NCBI GenBank assembly: GCA_963676395.1 | Contig: OY781066.1 | Location: 2,208,001 to 2,272,000 of the forward strand | From: a bacterium | GTDB taxonomy: Bacteria; Fidelibacterota; Fidelibacteria; Fidelibacterales; Fidelibacteraceae | DNA: 64,000 bases | Direction: 5' to 3' | Part shown: one piece after another, positions 20,283 through 39,583 of the stretch | Layout: each line of letters begins with the position of its first letter | Position numbering within the stretch: position 1 is the stretch's first letter | The notes under the pieces: generated by a model | Database searches by the model: none | What the model was told of the DNA's origin: nothing | What the model saw: the letters and a program-made list of their open reading frames with translations, nothing else | Position numbers and translations under genes: made by a program

Positions 20283-20660
20283 TTGTGTCGTTTCAATTAC
20301 AATGTGAAAAGTAATGATTTATTGAGGGGTTTCAAATACAAATCGGCGTAAAAGTAAGGAGTAAGGAGACTTAATTGTTAATTACAGTACATTAATTGAA
20401 TAAAAAATACTTTTGATATTCATATTTAGATTGTAAAATAGGCTATCGAATAAATTATTATGTATATACAGGCGAAAATCTGTAGCTGAAAGAATGTTTT
20501 TGGGATTATGTGTTGAATGCTGACAATCAGAAACTTACATCGCTCATTTGGTGGCAGAAAAGTAATTTCAGGGCTTGATATAGACTTGGAACCAGAAAAA
20601 TCAAATTCAATGGTGAGCGTTGATAGTGAATATTAAAACGATTAAAATACGTGGTTATAT

Positions 20661-21515
20661 ATGGAAACAATAACTATTACAGATTGGAATGAGTTTAAAA
20701 AATTGGTCTCTGATACCGAAATGACAAGTTGGATTTTCAGGGGACAAGCTATTTCGGATTGGCCAATATTAAGCTCTTTATCAAGATATTTTAATAAATT
20801 TGAAGTGCATACAGATTGTTGGCCTCATCAAGAGGAAAGATTATTAAGAATCTTTAAAAGAAAAGCTCACCATTATTTAGACAATGTTCCTACAGAAAAA
20901 GATACATTCGAGTGGCTTTCTTTGATGCAGCATTTTGGTACTCCTACTCGACTTGTTGATTTCACATTTTCACCATATGTTGCAGCTTTTTTTGCCTTAC
21001 ATAAAACGCAAGAAGATTGTGCGGTTTGGGCACTTTTCCCACCAAAATTTGATGGAGAATCAGAAATATTACTTCAAAATGGTGATAAATTTATTCCTAA
21101 AGATCGGTGGTTAAGAAAAAATGAAAATTATATTGATTATTATCTTAAAGGTGATAAATCATTTTTAATTATGGGCGAACCGGAAAGAATGAATCAAAGA
21201 CTAATTGCCCAAGCAGGCACATTTATTGTCCCAAGTAAAATTGACATACCCCTCGAAAAAATAATTATTGATAATTATCAAAATTCGGATGATGCAATTA
21301 AAAAAATAATTATAAAAAAATCTGTTAGAGATAAAGCTATGAAAGATTTATACAGATCAAATATTACAGAAGCTACCCTGTTTCCTGGAATAGATGGAAT
21401 GGCAAGAGCTTTATCATATGAATTAGAACATCATTGGGCTTATAATCCAAAAACAATGGAAAAGGTTGTAGGCTTTGATAGCCCTCCTTTTGGGTTGCCT
21501 GATTCAATCATATAG
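20661..21515 (+). CDS. FRG domain protein
   Basis: WIFRGQ, MQHFGTPTRLVDFT.SPYVAAFFA, RLIAQAGTF, TLFPGIDG. Confidence 0.9.
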   Translation: METITITDWNEFKKLVSDTEMTSWIFRGQAISDWPILSSLSRYFNKFEVHTDCWPHQEERLLRIFKRKAHHYLDNVPTEKDTFEWLSLMQHFGTPTRLVDFTFSPYVAAFFALHKTQEDCAVWALFPPKFDGESEILLQNGDKFIPKDRWLRKNENYIDYYLKGDKSFLIMGEPERMNQRLIAQAGTFIVPSKIDIPLEKIIIDNYQNSDDAIKKIIIKKSVRDKAMKDLYRSNITEATLFPGIDGMARALSYELEHHWAYNPKTMEKVVGFDSPPFGLPDSII

Positions 21516-21615
21516 CTAAGTAATTTGCTATCAATTATGGGTGTTTTTATAATTAGAACTAAATTTGGAATAAATATATTTTAGGAAAATATAATAAATA
21601 GGTATATAATTAATC

Positions 21616-22563
21616 ATGTCTATTATACTCGAGATAAATAATCTGGAAGTATCTTTTAAAAATAAAGATACAACAGTCTATGCCGTAAATAATGTATCAT
21701 TTTCTGTTGTTAGAAAAGAAGTACTCGGCATAGTAGGAGAATCAGGTTGTGGGAAATCTGTCACTTGTAAAACAATTTTAGGACTAAACAATCACCCGGA
21801 ACAAAGTGGAGAGGTTTTATTCCATGGGAAAAATATTTTGGAAGTTTCTGAAAAGGAGTTAAATAATATTCGTGGAAAAGAAATTTCCATGATTTTTCAA
21901 AATTCCGGGAATGCTCTGAATCCGATGGTAAGCATTGGGAAACAAATGGTTGAAGTGATACGCTTACATCAGGGACTAGACAAAATCGATGCTCAAAAAG
22001 AAGCGATACGGTTTTTAAAAGAAATGGATGTGCCTGATGCTGAAGAAAAAATGAACGAGTATCCGCATCAACAAAGCGGAGGAATAAACCAACGGATCGT
22101 TATTGCGATTGCATTAAGTTGTCATCCTGGATTATTGATTGCAGATGAACCAACAGCATCCTTGGATGTCACTATTCGAAACCAAATACTCCAGATTTTT
22201 AAAGATCTCAAAAAGAAACTAAGTATTATCATTGTTTCTCATGATTTGGCAGTTATTAAAGAAATCGCGGATAGAATCATTGTTATGTACAAGGGAATGA
22301 TCATGGAAGAAGGGAAAACGGAAGATATGTTCAAGAATCCATTACATCCCTACACAAAGGCTCTTTTAGCTTCCATTCCTTTTTTGAACAGAGATAAGAT
22401 CATTCTAAAGGGGGAGCCCCCTTCATCTCAAATTAAACCACAAGGTTGTCCTTTTGCAACAAGATGTCCTGATGTGATAGGTGAAATTTGTCATACAAAA
22501 AGGCCCAGTGAAACCATACTTGCAAATAAAGTTTATTGTCATCTTTTTAACAATAAACAATAA
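21616..22563 (+). CDS. Oligopeptide/dipeptide-type ABC transporter ATPase (OppD/DppD-like)
   Basis: GESGCGKS, YPHQQSGG, LIADEPT, HPYT, C-terminal GCPFATRC...C...CH. Confidence 0.9.
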   Translation: MSIILEINNLEVSFKNKDTTVYAVNNVSFSVVRKEVLGIVGESGCGKSVTCKTILGLNNHPEQSGEVLFHGKNILEVSEKELNNIRGKEISMIFQNSGNALNPMVSIGKQMVEVIRLHQGLDKIDAQKEAIRFLKEMDVPDAEEKMNEYPHQQSGGINQRIVIAIALSCHPGLLIADEPTASLDVTIRNQILQIFKDLKKKLSIIIVSHDLAVIKEIADRIIVMYKGMIMEEGKTEDMFKNPLHPYTKALLASIPFLNRDKIILKGEPPSSQIKPQGCPFATRCPDVIGEICHTKRPSETILANKVYCHLFNNKQ

Positions 22564-22579
22564 AGAAGCGAGGAGAATT

Positions 22580-24169
22580 ATGAAAACTGTAAATATTAAA
22601 CATTGGATTATACTTATTCTGGGATTAGCTCTATTATTTTCTTGCAGTAAAAACAACGAGCAGGAAGATGAATTGATTCTAAAAGATGTCTGGAAACTAG
22701 AACAGGCACAGATAAATTCCTTCGATCCCCTGGATGCTTATCATGCTTATCATATCCAATTGGTAAAACAATTATTTAATACGCTAACGAATCTAGATAA
22801 TACTGGAAAGATCATTTCATCTTTGGCAACTTCATGGGAAACCGATAATGGGAAAGACTGGATTTTTCATTTAAGAGATGATGTATGGTTTATAAATGAT
22901 TCCTGCTTTTCAAAAAAAGAAGATCGAAAATTCAATGCAAAAGATGTCAAATATACTTTTGAAAGACTTTTAGATCCTTCTTCAAGTTCCCTCGGTATAT
23001 CCTATTTTACTAATATTGCGGGTGTGAAAGAATACAGGGATGGTTCTTCCGCATCAATTAAGGGAATTAATCCCGTTGATAAGAATACAATTTCCTTTAA
23101 CTTAGTTCAAACGGATTATAATTTTCCAAATTTACTATCATTGCCATATTGCAGTATTGTAAAAAAAACGGCGATAGAACGAACGGACAGTAAACAGCAC
23201 CCTGTTGGAACAGGTCCTTTTATATTGGAGAAATATATTTCCAATCAATCTGTATCATTAATAAAAAATCCTGATTACTGGGAAAAATCCGGTAAAACCT
23301 CTTTGCCAATTGTTGATAAAGTAGAAATTACTTTAACGACAGATGACAACTACTCGTTTTTATTGTTTAAAAATAAAAAAACCGATTTTCTTGAATTGAA
23401 TCTTCCTTTGATCAAGCAACTTGAAAACAGCACCTTTTCATTTGATTATCAGAAAAATGTGCTGGAATCGGCTCAATTGAATTTTTACCTATTTAATTTG
23501 GATAAAATCCAGGATCCGACAATCAGAAAAGGAATTAGTTATACTATTGATCGGGGAAAAATGCAGGCATTGCTGGGAGATAATGGTACAATTACTTCAT
23601 CATTATACCCGAAAATATTTAGCAATATTTCTCAGCCACAACAAATACTCGCATATGACTTAATAAAAGCAAAGGAAATGCTTACTCAACCTATGCATAT
23701 AAAGCTTGTGTCATTTGATGATATGCTGTCCCGAAGTCTTGCCAATCAAATCAGGGAAGATTTGAAACCTTTTTCCATTGATGTGGAAATTGAAGCCGTT
23801 CCATTTGCTGTTTTGGTTGATCGTCTGACTTCAGGCAATTATGATATGATACAACTATTTTGGGGAATGTTGTATGCGGATGTCAATCATTTTCTTACAC
23901 CGTTCAAAACGTCTTCATTCCCGCCGGTAGGAAATAATTTCAATAAGTATTCCAACGATCAGTTTGATAATACTATCAATAAAGCGCCTCAGATGCCCAA
24001 AGAACAACAAGCAGAACTTTATAAAAAAGCCGAAGCAATAATTTTGGACGATATGCCATTTATATTAACTTATTATAAAAATATGATCAGTTTATCGGAT
24101 AAAAAATATGTTCTTCCTATAAATCCTTTGCTTTATAAGTATTATAAAGATGCTGTCCCTTTTGAATAA
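22580..24169 (+). CDS. Family 5 (OppA/DppA-like) substrate-binding lipoprotein
   Basis: AGGAG RBS then ATG 22580; lipobox LFSC; LATSW...WIFHLRDDV, PVGTGPF, NPDYW. Confidence 0.88.
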   Translation: MKTVNIKHWIILILGLALLFSCSKNNEQEDELILKDVWKLEQAQINSFDPLDAYHAYHIQLVKQLFNTLTNLDNTGKIISSLATSWETDNGKDWIFHLRDDVWFINDSCFSKKEDRKFNAKDVKYTFERLLDPSSSSLGISYFTNIAGVKEYRDGSSASIKGINPVDKNTISFNLVQTDYNFPNLLSLPYCSIVKKTAIERTDSKQHPVGTGPFILEKYISNQSVSLIKNPDYWEKSGKTSLPIVDKVEITLTTDDNYSFLLFKNKKTDFLELNLPLIKQLENSTFSFDYQKNVLESAQLNFYLFNLDKIQDPTIRKGISYTIDRGKMQALLGDNGTITSSLYPKIFSNISQPQQILAYDLIKAKEMLTQPMHIKLVSFDDMLSRSLANQIREDLKPFSIDVEIEAVPFAVLVDRLTSGNYDMIQLFWGMLYADVNHFLTPFKTSSFPPVGNNFNKYSNDQFDNTINKAPQMPKEQQAELYKKAEAIILDDMPFILTYYKNMISLSDKKYVLPINPLLYKYYKDAVPFE

Positions 24170-25029
24170 TGAAACGTTATAATCTAATATACCGCATTCT
24201 TTTCCTTTTATTGACGGTCTTGGTGATTCCTTTGTTACCAATCATTATTATCTTTTTAGGAACAAATTCTCCCGAATATGTGATCAAGGGAACCTTGAAT
24301 ATGAGTGTTTCGCCGGGAGTATCTCCTTGGAATCTGTATTTGGAAGCATTGAAAAACCTTCTTACATTCAATTTGGGGACATCCATTTCTTCCGGCCAAT
24401 CAGTTATAAATGAAATAGGTGCGGGATTGGGTCAATCTTTTAAGATTATTATACCGGCGCTGGTATTGAGCTACCTTCTGGGAACATTGATTGGTATTTT
24501 GAGAAAAGGTAAAAGCCCAATTACAGGAAAGCGGTATGATTTTATCTTTTACATTCCGATGATCGTTTTCTCCTATTTCTTTCTGTTCTTATCCGACAAA
24601 TTGGGAATTGATTTTACGTCCGGTATAAGATATGTGTATGCGGTTATTATCTTATCGATTTATCCGGTTTTTATCGTTTATAAATCATTTATTTCCCGAT
24701 ACCATACGATCATTGAAAGTGATTTTTACCAATTTCATTTGTCCACGGGTGTAGGTAAATCTAATATTTTTAAAAATTTTCTTGTAAAATATTTCGGAAT
24801 CGAATACCTTTCATTCTTAGAAAATCTTGTTATATATATGTTCGGGTTTATTTATTTTGTTGAATCCCCCTTTGCTATTAATGGTATGGGCTATAAATTT
24901 GTTTTGGGCATTCAACGATTTGATTACCCGCTGATCATTGGCTTCTGTATTGTGAGTATTATTTTTTTTTCTGTGATCAATATTATTATTGGATATATTC
25001 AATCAAAAATCGATCCTAGAAGGACATGA
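24169..25029 (+). CDS. ABC permease, divergent OppB-like
   Basis: Hydrophobic; NLGTS, VESPFAINGMG, DYPLIIG. Confidence 0.8.
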   Translation: MKRYNLIYRILFLLLTVLVIPLLPIIIIFLGTNSPEYVIKGTLNMSVSPGVSPWNLYLEALKNLLTFNLGTSISSGQSVINEIGAGLGQSFKIIIPALVLSYLLGTLIGILRKGKSPITGKRYDFIFYIPMIVFSYFFLFLSDKLGIDFTSGIRYVYAVIILSIYPVFIVYKSFISRYHTIIESDFYQFHLSTGVGKSNIFKNFLVKYFGIEYLSFLENLVIYMFGFIYFVESPFAINGMGYKFVLGIQRFDYPLIIGFCIVSIIFFSVINIIIGYIQSKIDPRRT

Positions 25030-25802
25030 AAATTAAAAAACAGACATGGCTTTTATCCTTTCTATTGATAATCATCATTATTATTACTTGCCATAATATT
25101 TTTCTTTCACCTTCTAAACAAACAACGTTATTAATATCTCCCAACTGGAATCATTGGTTTGGGACGGATATTAACGGAAATGATGTTTTTATAAGGACGT
25201 TGGGAGCATTTGGGTATGAACTGCTTAATTTGGTAAGTGTTCTTTTCCTTGTATGGATTTTGGGACTATTATTGGGAAGTTTGGTATCCCAGATCGGAGG
25301 TCAGGCTTTTAAAGCTTTTTTCTTGAATCTTGTTCATTACATGGCCACATTACCCGTATTACTGATTGCATTATTTTTGCTGATACTTTTTGGAGGTGGC
25401 TTTTTTAATGCTGTTATTATTCTTTCAATTACGATTATTCCGACACAAATACTTTTTGTGTACAATCAACTGGAAACAGCTCAAAATGAAAGCTTTGTTG
25501 TTGCTAAAAAGAGCTATGGATTATCTAATACCGCAATTTATAAATCTCATTTAATTCCTTTTATTTTAAAAAAATATAATAGTTATACTTTATCCCGCAT
25601 CCCAGAAATCATTATGATGAATCTCGCTTTAAATTTTTTAGGATTAGGGATTCAAGAACCTCATCCAAGTTTAGGACGGATGCTATTTGATGGTTTGTCT
25701 TTTATGTTTTCTGCGTGGTGGTTGTGGATATCTCCCGTTATATTAATATTTTTATTATTCCTGATTGTAATTAGTATTAATCATGGTAAAGCTTATGATT
25801 GA
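25026..25802 (+). CDS. ABC permease, OppC-like
   Basis: HWFGTDINGNDV, EAA-like FVVAKKSYGLS, LNFLGLG..PSLG. Confidence 0.85.
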   Translation: MKIKKQTWLLSFLLIIIIIITCHNIFLSPSKQTTLLISPNWNHWFGTDINGNDVFIRTLGAFGYELLNLVSVLFLVWILGLLLGSLVSQIGGQAFKAFFLNLVHYMATLPVLLIALFLLILFGGGFFNAVIILSITIIPTQILFVYNQLETAQNESFVVAKKSYGLSNTAIYKSHLIPFILKKYNSYTLSRIPEIIMMNLALNFLGLGIQEPHPSLGRMLFDGLSFMFSAWWLWISPVILIFLLFLIVISINHGKAYD

Positions 25803-26781
25803 CATTACATCTATTCAAAATAAATTGTTAAATGATATTAAATCCTCCTATGGAAAAAATAAATTAATACCATTTACAGGTGCAGGTTTTTCTAAAAATA
25901 TTATAGGTTATCCAAGCTGGAAAGAATTTATCGAAATAATATCTGATGATATCTCAGGAAACATAGAACATATTAAAGAGATGTTTGATAATAATTATCT
26001 TCAATCTATAGAATATTATATGATGAGTTTTCTTATAAATGAAAATCTTGCGGACGACCCAAAAAGTAAAGATCTTGGAAAAGAACAACTTTCAAAAAAA
26101 TTGAAAGAGATTTTTTGTAAAGAATTTGACCAGTCAACATGGGAAGCACAAATAGCTTTAATCAGTTTAAAGAATTTTGATTTAATATATACTACAAATT
26201 GGGATAATACCTTGGAAATTACTTGCAGGGAAATACTTGGTGAAGATAGATATAGGGTGTACTATAGAGCTTCACAATTAGAAAATATTAAAGAGGACTA
26301 TTGCAACATATTAGAACATAAAAAAGAAAATAGAAAAAAACTGATAATAAAATTACATGGTGATATTAAAGATTATGATTCAATAGTAGCATCAGAAGAT
26401 GCTTATTATAGTAGAATGAATTCATTTAATGCTTTCGATATTGTATTTCAAAATGATATACTTTTGAATGATTTTTTATTTATGGGGTTTAGTTTTGACG
26501 ATGCCAATATTAATTATTTACTTCAACAAATTCGATCTATGAAGAAAGAAATTAAACCTTCCAATAACAAAGTATATCTTATATCAATTAAAAAACCAGA
26601 TATCGCATATTATAAACTATATGAGAAATATAAAAACGTAGATGTATATTATTTGTTTAATAATATGCTAGAATATGAAATGTATGATAAATCTTGTGAT
26701 GAAGAAAAGAATAGAATAATAAAAAATAAAACAATAGAATTCTTCGATTATATTTCAGATGGAGAATTAAAAGAAAAGTAA
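25795..26781 (+). CDS. Stand-alone SIR2-like (SIR2_2) protein
   Basis: PFTGAGFS..YPSW, YTTNWD, IKLHGD, FMGFSFDD. Start may be 25783 or 25795. Confidence 0.85.
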   Translation: MIDITSIQNKLLNDIKSSYGKNKLIPFTGAGFSKNIIGYPSWKEFIEIISDDISGNIEHIKEMFDNNYLQSIEYYMMSFLINENLADDPKSKDLGKEQLSKKLKEIFCKEFDQSTWEAQIALISLKNFDLIYTTNWDNTLEITCREILGEDRYRVYYRASQLENIKEDYCNILEHKKENRKKLIIKLHGDIKDYDSIVASEDAYYSRMNSFNAFDIVFQNDILLNDFLFMGFSFDDANINYLLQQIRSMKKEIKPSNNKVYLISIKKPDIAYYKLYEKYKNVDVYYLFNNMLEYEMYDKSCDEEKNRIIKNKTIEFFDYISDGELKEK

Positions 26782-26805
26782 ACTAATGTATTAAGAGGTA
26801 TTCAG

Positions 26806-27861
26806 ATGGCTATAGGATTTTCAGGTAGTAATGGAGGTATTACAAATATATACAATCAATATCTTAATAAAATATGCACATCAAAACAATCGCTCGAAGT
26901 CTCATATTTTATTAACAATCGTTGTAACTTAAATTGTAAACACTGTTATGTCGGATATTATGATTCCTCAAAAAATCTTCAGATAGATGAATGGAGTAAA
27001 ACATTTGACAGCCTCATAAAAATGGGTGCTAAAACATTTGGAAATGTTGGGAAAGAGCCTTTACTGGATTGGGATAGTACAAAAATGTTGCTTCAATATT
27101 TTAAAGCCAAGAGAGATGAAGACAAAACTATACGTTTTGGGTTTGTCAGTAATGGATTGCTTCTAAATGAAGAAATTATTCAAGAATTGACCCAAATAGA
27201 GCCTGATTATATAGATATCAGTCTTGATGGCGACCAACATAGTCATGATTCTATCCGGGGAGAGGGTACTTATCAAAAACTTCTAACCAATCTTACTCTA
27301 TTGGCAGAAACGAACTTGGCAAAAAAGGTATTTATCAGTTTTACATTGAATAATATCAATAAACATTCATTGCCGGAAGTTATTAAAACCATTTATCAAA
27401 TCGGCTTGAAAAATTTGTTGATTTCACCTTATGTCACATTGAATAAAAAAGATCTGCTGTATCTATCAGATGTCGAAATTGCCGATATTATTTCCGATAT
27501 TCTGCATGAGAATACAATATCATTTAAAAATTATGAACATTTGAATATCTACGTAAAAAGTGATTATTCTTCTTCAAAGGGAGTCATGGAGAAATTTAAA
27601 GACAGAGGTATTATAAATAAAAATGATTTATTAGTAGATAATTATGGTGTTGTTTTTAATAAATATCAATTTGGTACAAATCATATTTATTTCAATTATT
27701 TACCTTATGACAATACCTTCACACAAGCCATTAGGATCAGTCATGACGGTTATGTAAGCGGTTGTCTTGAAATGTTCCATGAAGATTATCCTGAACGGGC
27801 TATTGGGAATATCAGGGAAATGGATATTTCAAAAATATTGGCAAATTATAATAAAAATTAA
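26806..27861 (+). CDS. Radical SAM enzyme of unknown function
   Basis: CNLNCKHC, GKEPLL, ISLDG..HDSIRG.G, C-terminal DGYVSGC..IGNI. Confidence 0.88.
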   Translation: MAIGFSGSNGGITNIYNQYLNKICTSKQSLEVSYFINNRCNLNCKHCYVGYYDSSKNLQIDEWSKTFDSLIKMGAKTFGNVGKEPLLDWDSTKMLLQYFKAKRDEDKTIRFGFVSNGLLLNEEIIQELTQIEPDYIDISLDGDQHSHDSIRGEGTYQKLLTNLTLLAETNLAKKVFISFTLNNINKHSLPEVIKTIYQIGLKNLLISPYVTLNKKDLLYLSDVEIADIISDILHENTISFKNYEHLNIYVKSDYSSSKGVMEKFKDRGIINKNDLLVDNYGVVFNKYQFGTNHIYFNYLPYDNTFTQAIRISHDGYVSGCLEMFHEDYPERAIGNIREMDISKILANYNKN

Positions 27862-30214: not shown

Positions 30215-30670
30215 ATGCTACGTATCAGAAACCTATATCATTCGTTTGGAGACAGGAAAATAATCAACGGACTTGACCTTGATCTGGAACCTCAAAAGAT
30301 ATATTGTCTAATGGGAGCAAATGGATCTGGTAAAACGACATTATTCAATATTATTACCGGATTTCTTAAAGCAAAAAGTGGCGATATAACATATAAAGAT
30401 CAATCCATATTTAATAAATCTCCCGTTAAAATTAATCATTTAGGTATAAGTCGAACTTTTCAAGATCTCCGTATGATCCGGGAATTAACGGTAAGAGAAA
30501 ATGTTATGCTTGCCTTTAAGGGTAATAAAGGAGAGAATATATTTCAAGCTATGTTACCCCCTCCATTATTAAAACACCAGAATGATGAGTTTAATTCAAG
30601 AGCAGAAGAAATTATTGAACGTGTATTTCTTAGCGATGTTATTGATCAAAACCCTGATGTATTCCGATAA
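30215..30670 (+). pseudogene. Truncated branched-chain amino acid-type ABC ATPase (LivG-like)
   Basis: GANGSGKTT, GISRTFQDLR; ends before the signature and Walker B motifs; no partner genes. Confidence 0.75.
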
Positions 30671-31576
30671 TAAATACGGGGGAGAGACCTATAAGCTCGT
30701 ATTTGAGCCTCAGGATACGCTGTATCGCAGGCATACACATGGTATTTTTACTTATGACAAGAATGCCGAACTGCGCGAAGAGCAAGGTTATTTGAACGAA
30801 AAGACCATTGCGAAAACATCAATTCTTTGGTTTCGCAATTACTTTGATGAAAAGGGTGATACGCTAAAGGCGATCAAGAAGACCGATCCGGACTCCGATT
30901 TTGGCTCTCGTGTAGAATACCAGAAACATTATTACAAAGATGGCGAGGTTGTAGAGGTCGAAGAGATCTATACCGAGGCCCATAACAAAGAAGTGGGACT
31001 CGTCAAACATAGCGTTATTGCGAATCCCGAGAAAGACGGAACCATTGTCACTTATCAATACAATAACGAAAAGATCGAAAAAGATGCCATTCTTAGTCAT
31101 GAGATCCATTATAATCATTACATCGAACCCGTTAAAGAGGTCATGTATCCGACATCACGGGTCAAGAATTACCTAAATCTCCAAATATTGATCATCGACC
31201 ATCACCCGGACGGCGCTCAGAGCATCATTGCTCATTACAAAGAGAACGACGCCCCCCACTCCGGAAGTCAAACTCCACGAGATCAAAGATGCTCCCAATG
31301 GCGACCAGCTGGTCGAATCCACATCTATTTCGATGGCGAACTCTACTACCGCATCAACTTAAGCGGTTACATCGCCCAGTATGCCACCCCCGACTACCGC
31401 TTTAAAACCTACCTCACCGCCTTCAAACGCGACAGCAGCATCGACCACGTCGAAAGACAGACGACAAAAACAAACACGATTATACCCTCAAGGTCACGGA
31501 ATTTTACCAAGGCCAGCAGTACCGTGATCTGTACTACAGAGACGGTAAGGTAGAGAAGACGGAATATTATGAGTAG
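30647..31576 (+). pseudogene. 5'-truncated, frameshifted Tyr-rich beta-repeat (MORN-variant-like) protein fragment
   Basis: Higher-GC segment joined to the LivG fragment. An alternative frame gives DDKNKHDYTLKVTEFYQGQQYRDLYYRDGKVEKTEYYE-stop at 31576. Confidence 0.55.
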
Positions 31577-31907: not shown

Positions 31908-33182
31908 ATGGATGCATTAATTGATATTACAACTATTCATCGAATTGGTAAGATTATTTATTCTAAAGAAAATGAACGTGTTAGAGCAATTGATATTGTT
32001 GCATTATTGCATTTTGTTGAGCTAATATTATTTTGTGATAACATATATTTTACACAAATTGAAGGTGAAAAAACAGTTCCTCTTACTAGTAAAATAATTG
32101 AATCGTTAATGAAATATGGATGTATTCCAAAAGATAATTTTAATTCTTGTATGTTAAAACCAATAAAATCGAAATATGACGATCATTATGATTTTCATGT
32201 AGTCGCGGCAAATAAATGTGCAAATATATTGTATACATTAAAGAATGACAATTTGTTTAAGCAACTACCTAAGTATTTTGATTGTGCTTCTCAACCAGAT
32301 GGAGTTAGAATAGACAATATATATAAATTATTAGAATCAAAAGACATTCACGAACCCATTTCTAATGAGTTTTTGTTAGAATTAATTAAGGATGATTTTG
32401 TATTGGGTTCCACAAAATCAATTCTTTTTAGTAGTCGAGAATTGCAATTACAGCTAAAACAATTATATAAAAAACCAAATTTTCAATATGATTATTTATT
32501 TAGAACAATGTTTAGGATTAAAGCTAATGAGGCTATAGCAAATAAGTTTAATTGCATTTATTCACCGGCACCGCAAAGAGCTATATTTGATCAAATAATC
32601 TACAGATCTATATTATCAGATATGAATAAATCAATTTTATCGATCAGAAATGAATTGGGCTTGCGTAAGTATTTTGATGGAGTTTTTAAAAAATATGTTA
32701 TAAGCGAGGAATATCCATTTCCTGCTCTTGTGATTGGTATTTTATTAGAGAATAAATTAAATGAACCTATAGAAATGTTGCAATGGGCTTGTAAATATCG
32801 TGAGGAAAGCAATGAATTAAACAATATACGAATGTATATAAATGAACTAGAGCGTTTAAATATGACTGGAAATTATTCTGATCAAAAAAACGTTAAAGAT
32901 AATATTAAAAATGTGATATATGAAGTAAGACAAAATTTAGATAATAATTTTGTTAAATCAATATTTAGATCATCTCTAAAAAATTTCTTAAGTTTGATTA
33001 ATGTTAACAATGATGGCAATATGACAGATGAAGAAATTGATAATTATTTAAGGTTATTTCGCTCAAAAAAATATGAAAAGATATTACCAACAAATTTTTT
33101 ATCAATTATTACTAATAACTTATTATCTGAGTCAGAATTAGGAGCATGGCTTTCAAGCTCCTTAAAAAGAGAAATATATTAG
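31908..33182 (+). CDS. Hypothetical 424-aa protein, first gene of the caspase operon
   Basis: Long ORF in very AT-rich DNA; AGGAAG RBS; no family recognised. Confidence 0.75.
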   Translation: MDALIDITTIHRIGKIIYSKENERVRAIDIVALLHFVELILFCDNIYFTQIEGEKTVPLTSKIIESLMKYGCIPKDNFNSCMLKPIKSKYDDHYDFHVVAANKCANILYTLKNDNLFKQLPKYFDCASQPDGVRIDNIYKLLESKDIHEPISNEFLLELIKDDFVLGSTKSILFSSRELQLQLKQLYKKPNFQYDYLFRTMFRIKANEAIANKFNCIYSPAPQRAIFDQIIYRSILSDMNKSILSIRNELGLRKYFDGVFKKYVISEEYPFPALVIGILLENKLNEPIEMLQWACKYREESNELNNIRMYINELERLNMTGNYSDQKNVKDNIKNVIYEVRQNLDNNFVKSIFRSSLKNFLSLINVNNDGNMTDEEIDNYLRLFRSKKYEKILPTNFLSIITNNLLSESELGAWLSSSLKREIY

Positions 33183-33229
33183 TAAAATATTATTAATATT
33201 ATTTGGAAAAATTAGATAAAGAGGTCAAA

Positions 33230-33595
33230 ATGAGAAAATTAAAATTTATAATTGATTTGGGTGATTTAGGTAACGATATCGATCCATATGAATTTCAACA
33301 GTTTTTAAAACAATCTAATTATTTGACAACTTGTAAATATTGTCATATTGACAATAAAGATGAAAACGATTTGAGAAGTAAAGATCTTTCGTTGGCAATA
33401 GAAATAACCCTATATGTGATGCCTGTAGTAGAAGGTTCTATTGATTTGATTCAGGAACTTGATGTTAATACATTTATAGATCTACTATTAAAATTAAAAG
33501 GGATTAAAGAGGGACTTGATTTTGTTAAAAATTGTATAGTTGAAGTTAAAGACAAAAATAATGGTAAAATTAGATATGTTGATAAAAAAAAATAA
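33230..33595 (+). CDS. Small protein overlapping the caspase gene, possibly EACC1-like
   Basis: GAGG RBS then ATG 33230; central hydrophobic stretch; C-terminal IVEVKDKNNGKIRYV hairpin-like pattern. Confidence 0.55.
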   Translation: MRKLKFIIDLGDLGNDIDPYEFQQFLKQSNYLTTCKYCHIDNKDENDLRSKDLSLAIEITLYVMPVVEGSIDLIQELDVNTFIDLLLKLKGIKEGLDFVKNCIVEVKDKNNGKIRYVDKKK

Positions 33596-35378
33596 GGTAA
33601 AAGATTATGCATTTGTGTATGGAGTGAATGGTCATGAATTAAAATTTTCTGAAATAGATGCATATGATTTTGGAAAATTTTTGATGACTAAAAAATACCT
33701 TAATTATCAGGTGAAGTTTGGTGATAATTGCTATAAAAATGATTATGGTTTTCTATCACAATTCGAAGAAAGGATAAAAGATCTAGAACCTAATTCAAGG
33801 CTTTTATTTTATTTTTCTGGTCATGGTGTTTTTGAAGGAGATCCAAAACAATTTAGTTTTGAAATTGGGAGAGATGAATTTTGTTCATTTAATAGTTTGA
33901 TAAAATCAATTAAAAAATCTGAGGGTGCTTTACAAGAAATATTATTTATTTTTGATTGTTGTCATGCACATGTTATTAAACATGAAATTGAACATTTAAA
34001 TATTATAGATAGTAATAAAGCAAGAATAACTGGTGTGGATTATCAAAAGAGATATCATATACTACTTCCTACAAATTACATTAAAACAGAAACATATGAA
34101 GCATTAATAGATTCCGATAGTTCTTTTACTAAAAATATATCAAAAACAATTGATAAAATAGCTGTTGATTTTTTAAATAAAACTGGGAAAATTACAATCA
34201 AGGATATTAAAGATGCTTACCCTAATCAAAATGATCTTACTAATAGCCCTACCATTCTTGATAGCTTGAATGATGATTTTGTAATCGGTAAAATCGGAGA
34301 ACGGAAATTTGATAAAACATATATTGGTGATAGGGCTTCTCAAATAAACGAATATCTTAATGCATTCAGTGTTGCAGATAATGTTTCTAAAAAATGGACA
34401 GTTAAAGTTCCTTATGGTCCTCATAGTATAATTAAACTTCAAGGACGTTTGTCTAAAATTATAAAAGAACAAGATGAAGAATTTGAAGAATTTGATAAAA
34501 AAGCGGAAAGGAAATATTTTGATGCTATTCAAAATCCTGAATTAGCGCTAGTCAGTAACGCAATATATACATTTCCGTTTTTTATGACTCCATCAAGATT
34601 ACCGTTTTGGGGGGTAATTCCTTATGGGTATCATTTGGCACTAGGAATTTTATATAAAAAAGGCAAAAATAACATTAAATCATTTTCAGAAGAATATTTT
34701 AATAGAGAAATTGTGTTGAGATACAAATATGAACCTAGTAGTAGAGAACAAAAAGAATACAGTGCAATTAAAGATTATCATTGGATCAATGAACTTATTA
34801 ATGGAATTATAGTAAGTGATGTTAAAGGAAAGATTTATTCTAATTCTGGTTATATGTATAGTGAATTAATTCCTCTATTAATTAATTCTTCCCAGGTTGA
34901 TTTTACGCTTGAAAAATTAAATGAATATTTATATGTCATACCAGTTTCTTCAGAGCGAGTAAATAATTATATTTACCCTAAAGAATGTTTGTTAAAAAAA
35001 CATGCAATTGAAAATATTATTGTAGATTATATGGAGGGTAGAGAAAGAAATATTACCCCAACTATTAATGATATCACAATTTTTGATCTTGCACATAAAA
35101 AAAACTTAATTGAAGTACTTAAGCGCAGAGGACTAGAAGAAAGTTATGGATTAATTAGCATGTATCATAATCTCAATATACCGGTTGGTATTGGATTTAG
35201 TTTGAAATCATACAAACTGTTTCAAGATAATAGAAATTTGTGGTCAATGTTGGAAAATGAAGTTAGGGAGTTTTTTATAGAGGCACCTAATAATTGCAAA
35301 TATAATAAGCAAAGAAAAAGAAGAATATTATCGGAATTAAATGATATTGGTATTAAAATAAATTTAAATAACCATTAG
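33576..35378 (+). CDS. Caspase-like (peptidase C14) protease with a C-terminal putative solute-binding domain
   Basis: YAFVYGVN..L....DA, FYFSGHG (33816), IFDCCHA (33954). C-terminal half resembles the adjacent SBP. Confidence 0.82.
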   Translation: MLIKKNKVKDYAFVYGVNGHELKFSEIDAYDFGKFLMTKKYLNYQVKFGDNCYKNDYGFLSQFEERIKDLEPNSRLLFYFSGHGVFEGDPKQFSFEIGRDEFCSFNSLIKSIKKSEGALQEILFIFDCCHAHVIKHEIEHLNIIDSNKARITGVDYQKRYHILLPTNYIKTETYEALIDSDSSFTKNISKTIDKIAVDFLNKTGKITIKDIKDAYPNQNDLTNSPTILDSLNDDFVIGKIGERKFDKTYIGDRASQINEYLNAFSVADNVSKKWTVKVPYGPHSIIKLQGRLSKIIKEQDEEFEEFDKKAERKYFDAIQNPELALVSNAIYTFPFFMTPSRLPFWGVIPYGYHLALGILYKKGKNNIKSFSEEYFNREIVLRYKYEPSSREQKEYSAIKDYHWINELINGIIVSDVKGKIYSNSGYMYSELIPLLINSSQVDFTLEKLNEYLYVIPVSSERVNNYIYPKECLLKKHAIENIIVDYMEGRERNITPTINDITIFDLAHKKNLIEVLKRRGLEESYGLISMYHNLNIPVGIGFSLKSYKLFQDNRNLWSMLENEVREFFIEAPNNCKYNKQRKRRILSELNDIGIKINLNNH

Positions 35379-35395
35379 CTGTAGGAGAATTAAAT

Positions 35396-36328
35396 ATGGT
35401 TGAGTTAAAAGAAAATCTTAAAAATAATCGTATGATGAGAAATGGTCGTTTTGCTATAGTATTCTCAATAATAGCCTTTTTTATAAGTTTATTATCAATA
35501 TTAGCTTTTACTCCTAATAATAAAATATCAGATAAAAATAATTATATCGGTGTATTTCAAGAAATTAAGAAACACAAAGTATTAAAAATTGGATACGGAG
35601 GTTTCCCTCCATATACAATAGTAAATCCAAATGTTAAAAATTCTGAGGATGAAGTAACCGGGTATTCTATAGATTTAATTAAGGAGATTGCTTCACTAGC
35701 ACAACCGGAGTTGGAAATCGAATGGGTAAGATTTAGTTGGGAAACTATTCAAACTGAGTTGAATTCCGGGAAATTTGATATAATAGCAGATCCAGTATAC
35801 CAAACTATTCCTAGAGCATTTGAATTCGATTTTACAATGCCTTATGCGTATTTTGGTATTGCTGTAGGTGTGGTAAACAAAGATGATGATAGATTTAATA
35901 CATTTTCAGACTTAGATAGAGATGATATAATAATTTCACTTGCAAAAGGTTGGACAACATCTGAGTATGCTGAAAAATATCTTGATAAACCAAAATTTCA
36001 TTTTATTTCTGCAACGGGTGATGCTTTTAATCAGCTTGATGATGTGATTCTAGGGAGAGCTGATGTTGCATTAAATGATGTACCTACAGTTGTACAATAT
36101 GTAAATGCCCATTCTGATGTAGTCAAAAGCGTTTTTATAGAGAATCCACCTTCTAGCGTACCCGGCGGTTTTGTAGTAAGAAAAGGAGAAGTTGATTTAT
36201 TAAACTTTTTGAACACTTCACTATATATACTTATGGCTAATGGTACACTTGAGAGACTAGATGAAAAATGGGAAACATACCACCATATACCAATCAATAC
36301 TAAAGTACCTGGCAGTGGTATAAAATGA
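35396..36328 (+). CDS. Polar amino acid ABC substrate-binding protein (family 3)
   Basis: N-terminal TM anchor; LKIGY..FPPY, GYSIDL, W......LNSGKFDI, GRADV, GTLERL.EKW. Confidence 0.9.
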   Translation: MVELKENLKNNRMMRNGRFAIVFSIIAFFISLLSILAFTPNNKISDKNNYIGVFQEIKKHKVLKIGYGGFPPYTIVNPNVKNSEDEVTGYSIDLIKEIASLAQPELEIEWVRFSWETIQTELNSGKFDIIADPVYQTIPRAFEFDFTMPYAYFGIAVGVVNKDDDRFNTFSDLDRDDIIISLAKGWTTSEYAEKYLDKPKFHFISATGDAFNQLDDVILGRADVALNDVPTVVQYVNAHSDVVKSVFIENPPSSVPGGFVVRKGEVDLLNFLNTSLYILMANGTLERLDEKWETYHHIPINTKVPGSGIK

Positions 36329-36340
36329 TCGGTTATATAT

Positions 36341-37015
36341 ATGCTAAATTATAATTGGGACTTTTCTTTTCTTCTCAGCTATAGAGATGCTTTCTTAAAT
36401 GGTATAGTGGTAACACTTTATGTCTCGCTTATGTCGTTTATAATTGGTACTATTGTTGGCATATTATTTGGTATGTTGATTAAATATATCAAACGGAATT
36501 ATATATTATTATTAATTAATGATGCAATTCGTGCTATACCAATGTTAGTTATGATATTTTTTGTATATTATTTTCCTTTCAAAGCATTATTGGGAATTAA
36601 TCCTCCTAATGCCTTGTATTCCTCAATTATAGCAATTAGTATAAGTCAGGCAGCTTATACCGCTGATATTGTTAGATCGGCAATAAATTCAGTATCATCC
36701 AAAACCATTCAAGGAGCCAAAGCATTAGGTCTGAAAGAAGTTGTTGTTCTTAGATATATAATTCTTCCCGATATAATTAGGCAAACGTTACCTGCGCAAA
36801 TAGCCTTTCTAATTGGCATTTTTAGATTGTCAAGTTTGGCATCAGTTATTGGTGCAAATGAAATCGTATTTGTAGCTCGTACAGCAATATCACAAAATTA
36901 TCGTTCTTTGGAGGCATGGATTGTTGTTGCAATAATTTATATTATATTAATATTGCCTTTAACATTCCTAAGTAGACGCTTAGAAAATTCAAAATGGTTA
37001 AAACGAAGATGGTAA
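36341..37015 (+). CDS. Polar amino acid ABC permease (HisM/GlnP-like)
   Basis: GIVVTL, RAIPMLV, AAYTADIVRSAI, GAKALGL, SSLASVIG. Confidence 0.92.
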   Translation: MLNYNWDFSFLLSYRDAFLNGIVVTLYVSLMSFIIGTIVGILFGMLIKYIKRNYILLLINDAIRAIPMLVMIFFVYYFPFKALLGINPPNALYSSIIAISISQAAYTADIVRSAINSVSSKTIQGAKALGLKEVVVLRYIILPDIIRQTLPAQIAFLIGIFRLSSLASVIGANEIVFVARTAISQNYRSLEAWIVVAIIYIILILPLTFLSRRLENSKWLKRRW

Positions 37016-37773
37016 ATAAAGAATTAATTTTAAAATGTAAGGATATTCAACATTCTTTTGGCTCGAATAAAGTTTTAAACTCATTAAACTTGGAATTGGT
37101 TAAAGGAGAAATAAAAGCAATTATTGGTGCTAGCGGTTGTGGAAAAACAACTCTATTAAAAAATATTAACTTGCTAATACCACCACAAAAGGGTGAATTG
37201 CAGTTATCAAAACAAGTTTATTTTAATAATGGTGAAATAATTTATGAACCATATGAATTATGTAGAAGTATTGGATTGGTTTTTCAGGATTTTAATTTAT
37301 TCCCGAATTTAACATGTCTAAATAACATTACTTTAGCTTTGATAAAGAATTTAGGATTTACAAAAGAAAATGCAACAGAAACATCCCTAAGAATTGCTGA
37401 AAAATTACATATACAAGATGTGCTTAAAAAGTATCCTGGGGATTTAAGTGGAGGTCAGGCTCAAAGGTTAAGCATTGCAAGAGCAATAGTACTGAAACCT
37501 AAAATATTATTGTTAGATGAGATTACTTCTGCTTTAGATCCTAATACTACACAAAATGTTATTGATGCAATAAAAGATGTTAAACTATTACTTCCAGAAT
37601 TATCAATAATTATTGTAACTCATCATATACAATTTGCTGAAAGATTTGCTGATAATATTGCATTTATGTTCGATGGTAGAATTATTGAAGAACTACCTGC
37701 GAGAGAATTTAGTACGAATTGTAAGAATTCTAAAACGCAAGAATTCGTTAAAGTGGTCGCAGGAATTCATTAA
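36994..37773 (+). CDS. Polar amino acid ABC ATPase (GlnQ-like)
   Basis: GASGCGKTT, VFQDFNLFP, LSGGQAQR, LLDEITSALDP, VTH. Start may be 37009. Confidence 0.92.
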   Translation: MVKTKMVNKELILKCKDIQHSFGSNKVLNSLNLELVKGEIKAIIGASGCGKTTLLKNINLLIPPQKGELQLSKQVYFNNGEIIYEPYELCRSIGLVFQDFNLFPNLTCLNNITLALIKNLGFTKENATETSLRIAEKLHIQDVLKKYPGDLSGGQAQRLSIARAIVLKPKILLLDEITSALDPNTTQNVIDAIKDVKLLLPELSIIIVTHHIQFAERFADNIAFMFDGRIIEELPAREFSTNCKNSKTQEFVKVVAGIH

Positions 37774-37777
37774 AAAT

Positions 37778-38800
37778 ATGTTTATTAAAATTAATAATTG
37801 TGAATTGCCTATAATTGAGAGTTTTATTGCTGATAATTCCAATAATATTTATTGTCATAATGTTTCAAGTGATGTTAGGCAAAGTAAATATTTTGATTTT
37901 ATGTGTTTTTATCTGTTTTTTATAGAATATGAGAAGAACAATATTGAAAGATATAAGGCAATACTGAAATTACTTGATACTTGCACTATTGGAAAATTTA
38001 TAGCGGGATTTCTTCAGAACATTCCAAACAATAAATTAAAAAACTATTTATCAGTTTGGCCCCAGACCAATATAGCCATTGCAGAATCTCAATTGATTAA
38101 AAATGTTTTCAAAGGAATTTTAGATGAATTTGGGAATGTCAGATATAGTCTGACAGATATTGGTACAGGAGATGGAGTGCTTTTAAAGGAAATTATTGAT
38201 ATGTTTTATGAAAAAGGCTATCCATATCTTAAAGTTACCGCAATAGATCAAAATAAAGATTTATTATCTCTTGCTATGAATGAAATCCTTAATTATAAGT
38301 CTAGTTTAAATGATTTGAATATAGTGCATGGAAACATGTTTGAAATAAAGTACGAAAAATATTTTAATAATGATGATATTAAAATAATCAATGCTTCATC
38401 GGTTCTCCATGAATTACCGAGAAGGGATAAGATTACTATGCTCGAAAAACTTAAAAAATATTCTGATATTATTGTTATATGTGAGCTTGAAAGTAATCAT
38501 GATATTGAATGTGTTGCTTGTATTCCTTTATTGTTGTCAACATATAATTTTTATAGTGCTTTAATTCATGATACTTTGGAATCTGACATAGATAGAGGTA
38601 TGTCAAAAAATTATATACTAAATTATCTCATTAAAGAACTTTTCGATATAAATACTAAGCCTTATCAAGATAGAGTTAACTATCATATGACAAAAAATCA
38701 ATGGTTAGATATATTTAGAATATGTGAATTTGATGTTAAAATACATGAAAAATCAATTTCGAATGATAAACCAAAAATTAATGTTTTCGTACTGAGGTGA
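37778..38800 (+). CDS. Class I SAM-dependent methyltransferase, GRAS-domain-like
   Basis: DIGTGDG, LKVTAID, INASSVLHEL, ICELESNHD, FYSALIHDTL, DRVNYH...QW...F in GRAS order. ATG 37778 lies 4 bp after the ATPase stop. Confidence 0.72.
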   Translation: MFIKINNCELPIIESFIADNSNNIYCHNVSSDVRQSKYFDFMCFYLFFIEYEKNNIERYKAILKLLDTCTIGKFIAGFLQNIPNNKLKNYLSVWPQTNIAIAESQLIKNVFKGILDEFGNVRYSLTDIGTGDGVLLKEIIDMFYEKGYPYLKVTAIDQNKDLLSLAMNEILNYKSSLNDLNIVHGNMFEIKYEKYFNNDDIKIINASSVLHELPRRDKITMLEKLKKYSDIIVICELESNHDIECVACIPLLLSTYNFYSALIHDTLESDIDRGMSKNYILNYLIKELFDINTKPYQDRVNYHMTKNQWLDIFRICEFDVKIHEKSISNDKPKINVFVLR

Positions 38801-38802
38801 AA

Positions 38803-39555
38803 ATGGTAAGAAAGATTATTTGTTTAATTATTATGCAAATATTCGTTATAAATATTTTGTTTGCTCAAGTTAATGAGTCTTCTACAGAAATAAGTAATAA
38901 TAGCTTTCAATTTGGTGTTTCAAATTATACGGTTTCAAAATATATTCCACGATCTGGCACTCAAGTCGGGCTTGGATCGGCAAATCAAACTTTAGGTTAT
39001 TTATCATATAAAAACCTAACCATATATTTTTGGATGAATTATGGATTCCCGGATGAAACGATAACTGAATTTGATTATGGAATTGAGTACAAACATAATC
39101 TTTATTCAGATACTCATTTAGGTGAAATCAGTATAGTGGGTGGTGCACACAAGTATATTTTTCCTGTAGCCCAATTGAACAACTTTATATTAGAAGGAAA
39201 AATACTTTATAATGGTATTTTAAAAACAGATATTCTCTATACGCATTGTTTTAGAAGTAATAACGTTGATTCAGGAAGTAGAATTTATATTGAATTGCGA
39301 AAACCAGTAATATTATTTGATAAATCATTTCAAATTCAATTAATTCCATTAATGTCAAGTGCATATCATTGGGGTTTTTATGGTTGGGAAAAGTGGGGGC
39401 AATTAACTGCTGGAATCAAGTCAAAGTTTGTTTTCGATAATATCTCTATAATTGCATACGCAAATTATCAATATAGTTCAGATGATATTAGTATAGGGCA
39501 TGTAACTGAAAAGTTATTCCCATATTTTGGAATTGGAATAGAATATAATAAATAA
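38803..39555 (+). CDS. Outer-membrane beta-barrel, TorF/Gcw_chp-like putative porin
   Basis: Signal peptide; SKYIPRSG and TEFDYGIEY patterns; C-terminal YFGIGIEY beta-signal-like strand. Confidence 0.6.
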   Translation: MVRKIICLIIMQIFVINILFAQVNESSTEISNNSFQFGVSNYTVSKYIPRSGTQVGLGSANQTLGYLSYKNLTIYFWMNYGFPDETITEFDYGIEYKHNLYSDTHLGEISIVGGAHKYIFPVAQLNNFILEGKILYNGILKTDILYTHCFRSNNVDSGSRIYIELRKPVILFDKSFQIQLIPLMSSAYHWGFYGWEKWGQLTAGIKSKFVFDNISIIAYANYQYSSDDISIGHVTEKLFPYFGIGIEYNK

Positions 39556-39583
39556 CTTGGGAACAAAACGATAAGGATAAAAA

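Follow-up and report, generated by a model that had tools for sequence, protein, structure and literature searches.

How do the genes of a peptide-type ATP-binding cassette (ABC) importer come to be lined up with genes for a SIR2-like protein and a radical S-adenosylmethionine (SAM) enzyme, and do these genes make up a single functional system? This question is raised by the locus at positions 20661-27861 of a 64,000-nucleotide stretch (hereafter, the window, meaning this whole stretch) from a bacterium of the family Fidelibacteraceae (GenBank assembly GCA_963676395.1, contig OY781066.1, positions 2,208,001 to 2,272,000). An earlier, sequence-only reading of the locus described seven genes, the first of which encodes an FRG-domain protein, and proposed either an import-triggered NAD+ defense module or a pathway importing and remodeling a nucleoside/ADP-ribose or peptide conjugate. 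We find that six of these genes (21616-27861) are, judging by sequence comparison, one self-contained, horizontally mobile operon of 6.2 kb, to which FRG does not belong, and that the SIR2 gene has been repeatedly replaced within this cassette. The SIR2 protein is kin to the immune NADases, and we tentatively interpret the cassette as a conflict module with an importer as its putative input.

Conservation of a six-gene cassette

An alignment of 19 SIR2 relatives was used to scan a collection with one genome per prokaryote species, yielding 112 confirmed relatives, of which the best 80 correspond to 79 distinct loci (denoted by L numbers below), and all seven window proteins were compared with these 79 loci by tblastn. 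Importer genes are located directly upstream of SIR2 in 11 of the 79 loci (L002-L008, L028, L048, L064 and L075), and in these cassette loci the radical SAM (rSAM) gene lies directly downstream of SIR2 wherever the contig extends far enough. The cassette loci come from at least seven lineages, namely, Desulfobacteraceae/Deltaproteobacteria, Candidatus Brocadia, Firestonebacteria, Rhodothermaceae, Phycisphaerales, Myxococcota and Magnetococcales. The complete set, consisting of the genes for the ATPase, the solute-binding protein (SBP), two permeases (PermB and PermC), SIR2 and rSAM, is present in L003, L004, L005, L007, L048, L075 and L064, with the SIR2 frame interrupted in the latter; L002, L006, L008 and L028 are cut by contig ends. 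The ATPase of the window is 47-60% identical to those of the other cassette loci (tblastn).

The PermC and SIR2 genes overlap or are no more than 10 nucleotides (nt) apart in all nine loci that span the junction, and L075 has its SBP and ATPase genes in an inverted, convergent orientation, although they are still adjacent. Because the same six genes with the same tight PermC/SIR2 junction recur across phyla, this arrangement cannot be attributed to chance. The limits of the unit are set by the DNA alignment of L003 and L004, which runs from 13 nt before the ATPase start codon to the rSAM stop codon, so that the shared unit comprises exactly the six genes. The content, order, coupling and cross-phylum conservation of the cassette, and likewise its rarity described below, are direct observations. 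No further gene for catabolism or biosynthesis is conserved in the scanned flanks.

The sequence-only reading had included FRG in the operon, and this part has to be abandoned. FRG was found by tblastn in none of the 79 loci, nor was it present among 48 flanking open reading frames (ORFs) examined with Pfam or 71 flanking ORFs examined with PADLOC; being missing from all related loci, it is a separate neighboring gene outside the operon. The FRG protein matches, at 8.1e-53 and near full length (residues 2-257), the PADLOC single-gene candidate PDC-S15, a likeness that concerns this neighbor alone and not the cassette. The neighborhood comparison set in advance accordingly gave a split outcome, with SIR2 present in every locus that combines the importer with rSAM and has contig coverage (including L064 with its broken frame), and FRG in 0/79.

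An additional soluble ORF of ~200 amino acids (aa), with no clear family, is located between the permease genes at L003 5576-6202, L004 8536-9183 and L005 3653-4240. Its copies are 32-41% identical to one another; it was found in these three loci only, and neither the window nor L064, which is closely related to L005, has a copy.

Mosaic evolution and replacement of SIR2

Mean pairwise identities were calculated for the seven complete loci, leaving out the partial L002, L006, L008 and L028 and the frame-broken L064. They amount to 54% for the ATPase, 51% for the SBP, 44% for PermB, 49% for PermC and 49% for rSAM, and to 32% for SIR2. The pairwise identities of the importer proteins correlate with those of rSAM (Spearman 0.79-0.93 over 21 locus pairs, which, being kin, are not independent).

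The deviation of SIR2 is most pronounced among close relatives. In L002, L003 and L004, the rSAM proteins are 75-77% and the PermC proteins 74-81% identical, but the SIR2 proteins are only 33-41% identical, and the SIR2 of L002 is closest to that of the window (53%). The DNA sequences of L003 and L004 share 78-87% identity in the importer genes, PermC and rSAM, and blastn detects no similarity between them across the SIR2 gene. In the Brocadia pair, L005 and L064, the ATPase, SBP and PermB are 92-94% identical and the gene downstream of the cassette is 96% identical; SIR2 is ~31% and rSAM 52% identical, the breakpoints being located within PermC and within the 3' third of rSAM. Thus, SIR2 has been swapped between near-identical cassettes, once together with most of rSAM. 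This is the replacement pattern of effector genes in conflict systems. Such exchange suggests that SIR2 is coupled to the rest of the cassette via something generic, such as a small molecule or an invariant tail, rather than via a co-adapted protein surface.

Organization and surroundings of the window locus

Gene assignments at 20661-27861 are based on ORF calls and on Pfam, NCBIfam and PADLOC profile scans, which bear out the seven ORFs of the sequence-only reading, all on the plus strand and co-oriented (Table 1).

Table 1. Genes and features of the locus at 20661-27861 of the window
Feature	Position	Strand	Length (aa)	Profile matches and remarks
FRG-domain protein	20661..21515	+	284	Pfam FRG 5.2e-25, 88.6 bits against a 25-bit cut-off
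ABC ATPase, OppD-like	21616..22563	+	315	Pfam ABC_tran 2.1e-28; oligo_HPY 3.2e-18
Family-5 solute-binding lipoprotein (SBP)	22580..24169	+	562 from GTG 22481	Frame open from GTG 22481; SBP_bac_5 6.8e-58
Permease B (PermB)	24169..25029	+	286	BPD_transp_1 9.6e-12
Permease C (PermC)	25026..25802	+	258	BPD_transp_1 1.1e-9
Stand-alone SIR2_2 protein, KomC/ThsA/DSR2 type	25783..26781	+	332	SIR2_2 6.8e-20; predicted NAD+ hydrolase
Radical SAM enzyme (rSAM)	26806..27861	+	351	Radical_SAM 3.9e-20; SPASM 7.8e-7 (partial, residues 307-347)
rSAM N-terminal tail MAIGFSGSNGGI	26806..26841	+		Near-invariant; disordered in the model

The genes overlap by 1 nt (SBP/PermB), 4 nt (PermB/PermC) and 20 nt (PermC/SIR2); gaps of 24 nt separate SIR2 from rSAM and of 100 nt FRG from the ATPase. 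These spacings agree with those given before, apart from the start of the SBP, which most likely corresponds to M34, where a lipoprotein-type signal ending in LLFSC appears to begin. With this start, the SBP lies 16 nt after the ATPase and the two genes do not overlap. Only one ATPase gene is present.

The GC content of the region encompassing FRG and the cassette is 0.25-0.36, compared to 0.41-0.45 on both flanks. No tRNA, tmRNA or Rfam matches were detected around this island, and direct repeats are only short and chance-like, so that its borders are not definable. Promoter-like sites number 44, compared to 47.1 in shuffled sequences, that is, there is no excess, and the TTGCTA-17-TATAAT element in the gap that separates FRG from the ATPase cannot, accordingly, be taken to indicate a separate promoter. 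The amino-acid permease gene downstream of the cassette was not found in the 5 relatives searched; the nearest rpe locus lies at a contig end, making synteny uninformative.

Immediately upstream of FRG, at 20517-20620, there is a decayed copy of the start (~28 codons) of an ABC ATPase ORF located at 30215. The latter (within 30215-31553) encodes 151 aa, is truncated within ABC_tran and overlaps a 323-aa ORF without a family. The decayed copy and the ORF at 30215 may be the borders of an inserted or rearranged segment of ~9.6 kb. Near the first operon, at 31908-40363, there is a second co-oriented operon of low GC content (0.25-0.32) that encodes 424-aa and 130-aa proteins without a family, a 612-aa caspase-like protein (Peptidase_C14 1.1e-4; PADLOC caspase 3.2e-7), a family-3 SBP, a permease, an ABC ATPase, a methyltransferase-like 388-aa protein and two further proteins without assignment, and is thus another importer joined to a defense-type domain.

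A SIR2 protein related to immune NADases

The cassette SIR2 scores 72 bits with Pfam PF13289, well over the gathering threshold of 24.5 bits, and matches the PADLOC ThsA SIR2 models at 2e-22, the latter match covering only the SIR2 part (model positions 6-222 of 478). In a search of the PDB with the family profile, KomC was the best match (7.1e-39), followed by a second KomBC entry, ThsA and DSR2. The AlphaFold2 (AF2) model has a predicted local distance difference test (pLDDT) score of 89.9, and ranks 1-47 among the Foldseek matches listed are all KomC, ThsA or DSR2, with template modeling (TM) scores of 0.80-0.81 on KomC as the target. The catalytic motifs, T137, N139, W140, D141, H192 and G193, do not vary among 19 family members and 9 cassette loci, nor do G33 and G35 of the glycine-rich NAD loop in the SIR2 family; H192 aligns to His146 of KomC. 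The cassette SIR2 is thus kin to the immune NADases KomC, ThsA and DSR2, with the catalytic residues retained, and presumably hydrolyzes NAD+. The earlier assignment to NAD+-cleaving defense effectors holds for both sequence and fold, with KomC as the best match in each.

According to the accessible part of the Kongming preprint, His146 of KomC is essential, KomC on its own, lacking KomB, is inactive, and diverse genes are found in association with KomBC modules. KomC and the cassette SIR2 have in common the TTN-x-D and H-G catalytic motifs, and both are small, stand-alone and horizontally mobile; by analogy with KomC, as described in that part of the preprint, the cassette SIR2 may need a partner or a signal. 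They differ in that KomC consists of 264 aa, whereas the 332-aa cassette SIR2 has a variable C-terminal extension, and neither the HAM1-like KomB (PF01725) nor the adenosine deaminase KomA was found among the seven window genes, the partners being instead an ABC importer and a radical SAM enzyme. With ThsA of the Thoeris system and DSR2, the cassette SIR2 shares the SIR2_2 fold and catalytic residues; unlike these, it consists of the SIR2 domain and short helices only, and the cassette lacks a SLOG domain, a ThsB/TIR partner and a large DSR2-type sensor region.

The outgroup SIR2 proteins, 24-29% identical to that of the cassette, are encoded in operons of the form SIR2 - Ham1-like (KomB-like) - PPDK_N - PEP-utilizer domain. 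Such operons, with a SIR2 of ~295 aa and a Ham1/RdgB-like protein of ~190 aa, are found at L009 9959-14461, L013 2981-6592, L014 9947-12455, L016 1211-4653, L029 7282-10884 and L010 9992-12073, and resemble KomBC modules of the Kongming type in which another component would make the signal. Three of these six operons (L009, L014 and L029) have an adjacent gene for a radical SAM protein of ~325 aa that is only 20% identical to the cassette rSAM, so that radical SAM enzymes recur beside KomC-type SIR2s in a second, different architecture. In two further loci (L022 2234-4249 and L024 9899-11995), SIR2_2 is fused to a C-terminal response-regulator receiver domain, in proteins of 671 and 698 aa, respectively.

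A peptide-type importer of a distinct kind

The importer has the features that define the Opp/Dpp/Nik/Sap class, namely, an SBP_bac_5 lipoprotein, two BPD_transp_1 permeases and an ATPase combining ABC_tran with oligo_HPY. It differs from these importers in having a single ATPase gene, as opposed to the OppD/OppF pair, and in always forming one operon with SIR2 and rSAM. The ATPase has the Walker A sequence GESGCGKS and C-terminal cysteines at positions 278, 284, 292 and 308. Its best NCBIfam match is OppD (312 bits against a 575-bit cut-off); the models nearest to PermB are Opp2B/NikB-like, all far under the cut-off, and PermC matches Opp2C at 1.2e-32, also under the cut-off. None of the named equivalogs in NCBIfam (OppA-F, DppA-F, NikA-E, SapA-F, Cnt, Gsi and Yej) was reached; SapA, for example, gave 118 of 560 bits.

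All nine cassette SBPs examined have an N-terminal signal peptide, lipobox or membrane anchor. The mean column identity of the SBP is 65% across phyla, with long invariant stretches, implying that it recognizes a single defined ligand outside the cytoplasm. Among proteins of solved structure, its nearest relatives are binders of peptides, heme/AI-2, antimicrobial peptides or murein peptide. In OppA and DppA, a conserved Asp holds the amino terminus of the peptide. The invariant D434 of the cassette SBP (mature-start numbering) occurs in a similar Trp-Gly context and may be its counterpart.

A radical SAM enzyme with an invariant N-terminal tail

The cysteines of the CX3CX2C motif of rSAM (C40, C44 and C47) are invariant in 20 sequences. 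The SPASM domain is defined by a 7-Cys motif, and SPASM enzymes are expected to hold auxiliary clusters. The only other cysteines in the window protein are C24 and C320, and C320 alone is conserved; with a single conserved cysteine outside the SAM cluster, the enzyme cannot hold auxiliary clusters. No NCBIfam model is reached by rSAM, the best being PapB (80.5 bits against a 340-bit cut-off), and only generic rSAM clusters were retrieved from the ESM Atlas. The best PDB sequence matches are CteB (6.7e-25), SkfB (4.4e-20) and anSME, and the best Foldseek matches of the AF2 model (pLDDT 87.7) are SkfB, CteB and SuiB, with TM scores of 0.58-0.64.

The comparison is therefore, first and foremost, with the maturases of ribosomally synthesized and post-translationally modified peptides (RiPPs), CteB, SkfB, SuiB and PapB, which share the CX3CX2C core with the cassette rSAM and provide its best sequence and fold matches. 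A conserved short peptide, as a candidate precursor, is also associated with the enzyme. In contrast to the maturases, the cassette rSAM lacks the auxiliary-cluster cysteines and an N-terminal domain of the size of a RiPP recognition element (RRE), the TM scores are only ~0.6, and the candidate motif is located at the extreme N-terminus of the enzyme itself rather than in a separate C-terminal core peptide. Prokaryotic viperin (pVip) was also considered and rejected: the PADLOC match was only 3.3e-14, over the generic rSAM core, and viperins ranked below the peptide maturases by both sequence and fold.

The tail has the 12-residue consensus M-A-x-G-x-S-G-S-x-G-G-I/V and is present at the exact N-terminus in all 10 cassette rSAMs that cover this region, with a G-to-N variant in L064. 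More broadly, it is found in 10 of 20 family representatives and is duplicated in tandem in one of these (P0023). In the model, residues 2-26 are disordered (pLDDT < 50). A homologue with 45% identity is encoded at L081 7333-8590, on an archaeal-looking contig (PCNA, archaeal primase), with the importer and SIR2 absent; directly upstream of it is a 71-aa ORF, and both proteins start with the tail motif. A 74-aa relative of the 71-aa protein likewise begins with this motif, and one source lists the 71-aa protein as hypothetical, from a metagenome-assembled genome of Nanoarchaeota. The occurrence of the motif on enzymes and on stand-alone small proteins indicates that it is a transferable element. 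The rSAM tail might serve either as a substrate in cis, in the manner of an N-terminal core peptide, or for docking.

Rarity and distribution

The cassette components are exceedingly rare. SIR2 was detected in 1 of 41 related genomes, the host itself; the rSAM family in 1 of 401 sampled genomes of the host phylum (E <= 1e-25); and the SBP subfamily in 2 of 401 genomes of the phylum of L004 (E <= 1e-60), namely, the genome of L004 and one other (G587). The latter carries SIR2 and rSAM as well, on another contig; the N-termini of its proteins match those of L002 exactly, and the two therefore probably represent one organism rather than independent occurrences. In each of five carrier genomes, the cassette is present in a single copy. 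Of 1.84 billion representative proteins, 41 belong to the rSAM family (E <= 1e-30), and the SIR2 clade accounts for 20 clusters in a collection of 5.8 billion.

With respect to mobile elements, tblastn with rSAM yielded no plasmid match and only three generic phage matches of 26-31% identity, and a scan of viral contigs with the SIR2 alignment returned 12 loci, all distant (21-29% identity). A metagenome scan with the rSAM alignment, which carries generic rSAM patterns, kept 80 loci, of which only L081 is a true family member. Outside the window, the host genome contains a second SIR2_2 match (G000:C1:715875-716273), in a 948-aa open frame that is possibly DSR-like.

Functional interpretation

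We consider it possible, with a probability of roughly 0.45, that the cassette is a conflict or abortive infection-type module in which ligand import and rSAM control the SIR2 NADase. SIR2 would be the NAD+-depleting output, and the importer and rSAM the input. The importer is a complete one of the Opp/Nik class, with one ATPase that would act as a homodimer, the exported lipoprotein SBP and the two permeases, and is translationally coupled to SIR2 and rSAM. It would take up a specific extracytoplasmic ligand, probably a peptide, which rSAM with its invariant tail might convert or sense, producing a signal that switches the NADase on. The NADase activity, the ligand, the direction of signaling and the role in defense are inferred. 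In this conditional form, the import-triggered NAD+ defense module of the sequence-only reading stays the best reading of the cassette.

The genomic surroundings give mixed testimony. L048 is flanked by a type III restriction-modification system, further methylases and P2-like baseplate genes; L007, by PDC-S01, PDC-S04/SoFic and Fic; L005, by a GmrSD-like gene split by an insertion sequence (IS); L004, by a TIR effector-like gene, a pPIWI-type nuclease, PIN and IS110; L064, by an integrase and PIN; and the window cassette, by FRG/PDC-S15.

A number of observations weigh against a role in conflict. Five of the nine scanned loci (L002, L003, L028, L064 and L075) have no PADLOC match in their flanks. 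For the control, the same ORF rule was applied to 117 kb of sequence, taken as nine arbitrary regions of the same five genomes. PADLOC matches at 1e-5 were obtained for 13 of 71 flanking ORFs and 14 of 93 control ORFs (Fisher p = 0.67), and strong matches (E < 1e-25) for 7 of 71 and 4 of 93 (p = 0.21), the latter comparison reaching p = 0.04 only after two generic sigma-54-activator matches are discounted. Given that the control yields no significant enrichment, the defense-island argument is suggestive only. Furthermore, binding-protein-dependent ABC importers are normally metabolic; our literature searches retrieved no defense system with such an importer, and to our knowledge none uses one. 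Likewise consistent with a nutritional role is the finding that the host genome contains no PF00496 match other than the cassette SBP. KomB, on which KomC depends, is missing from the cassette, and the rSAM homologue of L081, which occurs without importer or SIR2, shows that rSAM has a function independent of SIR2.

Several of these points feed into the second of the two earlier proposals, which we retain as a serious, if unlikely, alternative, namely, that the cassette is a non-immune import-and-process pathway, in which a peptide, peptidyl-nucleoside or metal chelate would be tailored, detoxified or salvaged by rSAM and SIR2, with SIR2 acting as an NAD+-dependent transferase or deacylase and not as a lethal NADase. 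All four importer parts look functional, the 65% conservation of the SBP implies one defined ligand, and rSAM is closest in fold to peptide-modifying enzymes; the cassette also encodes the only family-5 importer of the host, and its flanks are not significantly enriched in PADLOC matches. What speaks against such a pathway is that SIR2 groups, by sequence and by fold, only with immune NADases and not with deacylase sirtuins, and that it has been replaced by 31-41%-identical versions in cassettes whose remaining genes show 75-94% identity; an enzyme matched to one substrate would not be expected to be exchanged in this way. The cassette is, moreover, very rare and phylogenetically scattered, and no other catabolic or biosynthetic gene is conserved alongside it.

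The block exchange in the Brocadia pair, where SIR2 and most of rSAM were replaced next to importer genes that are still 92-94% identical, together with the presence of the rSAM family without the importer in L081, could also be taken to mean that the SIR2-rSAM pair is a functional unit and that the importer is an unrelated upstream operon that travels with it. This appears improbable, given that the importer adjoins SIR2 in 11 of 11 cassette loci from seven lineages, with PermC and SIR2 overlapping or within 10 nt in 9 of 9; that L075 keeps the six genes together despite an inversion; that close SBP relatives occur only in cassette carriers (2 of 401 genomes); and that importer and rSAM identities track each other (the Spearman coefficients cited above, for kin that are not independent).

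A more specific version of the conflict module, and a decidedly speculative one to which we assign little credence, is a closed peptide alarm circuit that would provide community-level abortive infection via an imported danger signal. The N-terminal dodecapeptide of rSAM would be a RiPP-like core, modified in cis and released upon lysis of the carrier cell; the SBP and importer of neighboring carriers would take up the peptide, and their SIR2 NADase would be switched on. What such a circuit would explain best is the co-conservation of an invariant peptide and an unusually conserved peptide-type SBP, in combination with a freely exchangeable SIR2. Finally, a seven-gene operon with FRG as a working component is barely credible, because the FRG gene, although co-oriented with the cassette, only 100 nt upstream of it and within the same low-GC stretch, is found in 0/79 related loci and in none of the scanned flanks, matches a single-gene PADLOC candidate over its full length, and lies outside the similarity between L003 and L004, which begins only 13 nt before the ATPase gene.

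Implications

The combination of genes was not recognized in the sequence-only reading, and this remains the case: full-text literature searches found no description of an importer-SIR2-radical SAM system, and the main text of one domain-centric discovery paper mentions neither radical SAM enzymes nor transporters. Neither rSAM nor the cassette as a whole is represented by a model in NCBIfam or PADLOC. By its gene content, the cassette appears to belong among the SIR2-based NAD+-depletion systems, with a putative input module that is without precedent.

If the conflict interpretation is correct, the cassette would be without precedent among conflict and immune systems in taking its input from a binding-protein-dependent importer, and a bacterial NADase effector would be controlled by extracellular uptake and not by an intracellular phage cue. 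A function would thereby be assigned to an rSAM family that has no auxiliary clusters and carries an invariant N-terminal peptide. If, instead, the cassette is metabolic, an immune-type SIR2 would have been recruited into a small-molecule pathway. Either way, the unit is compact (6.2 kb), self-contained and testable.

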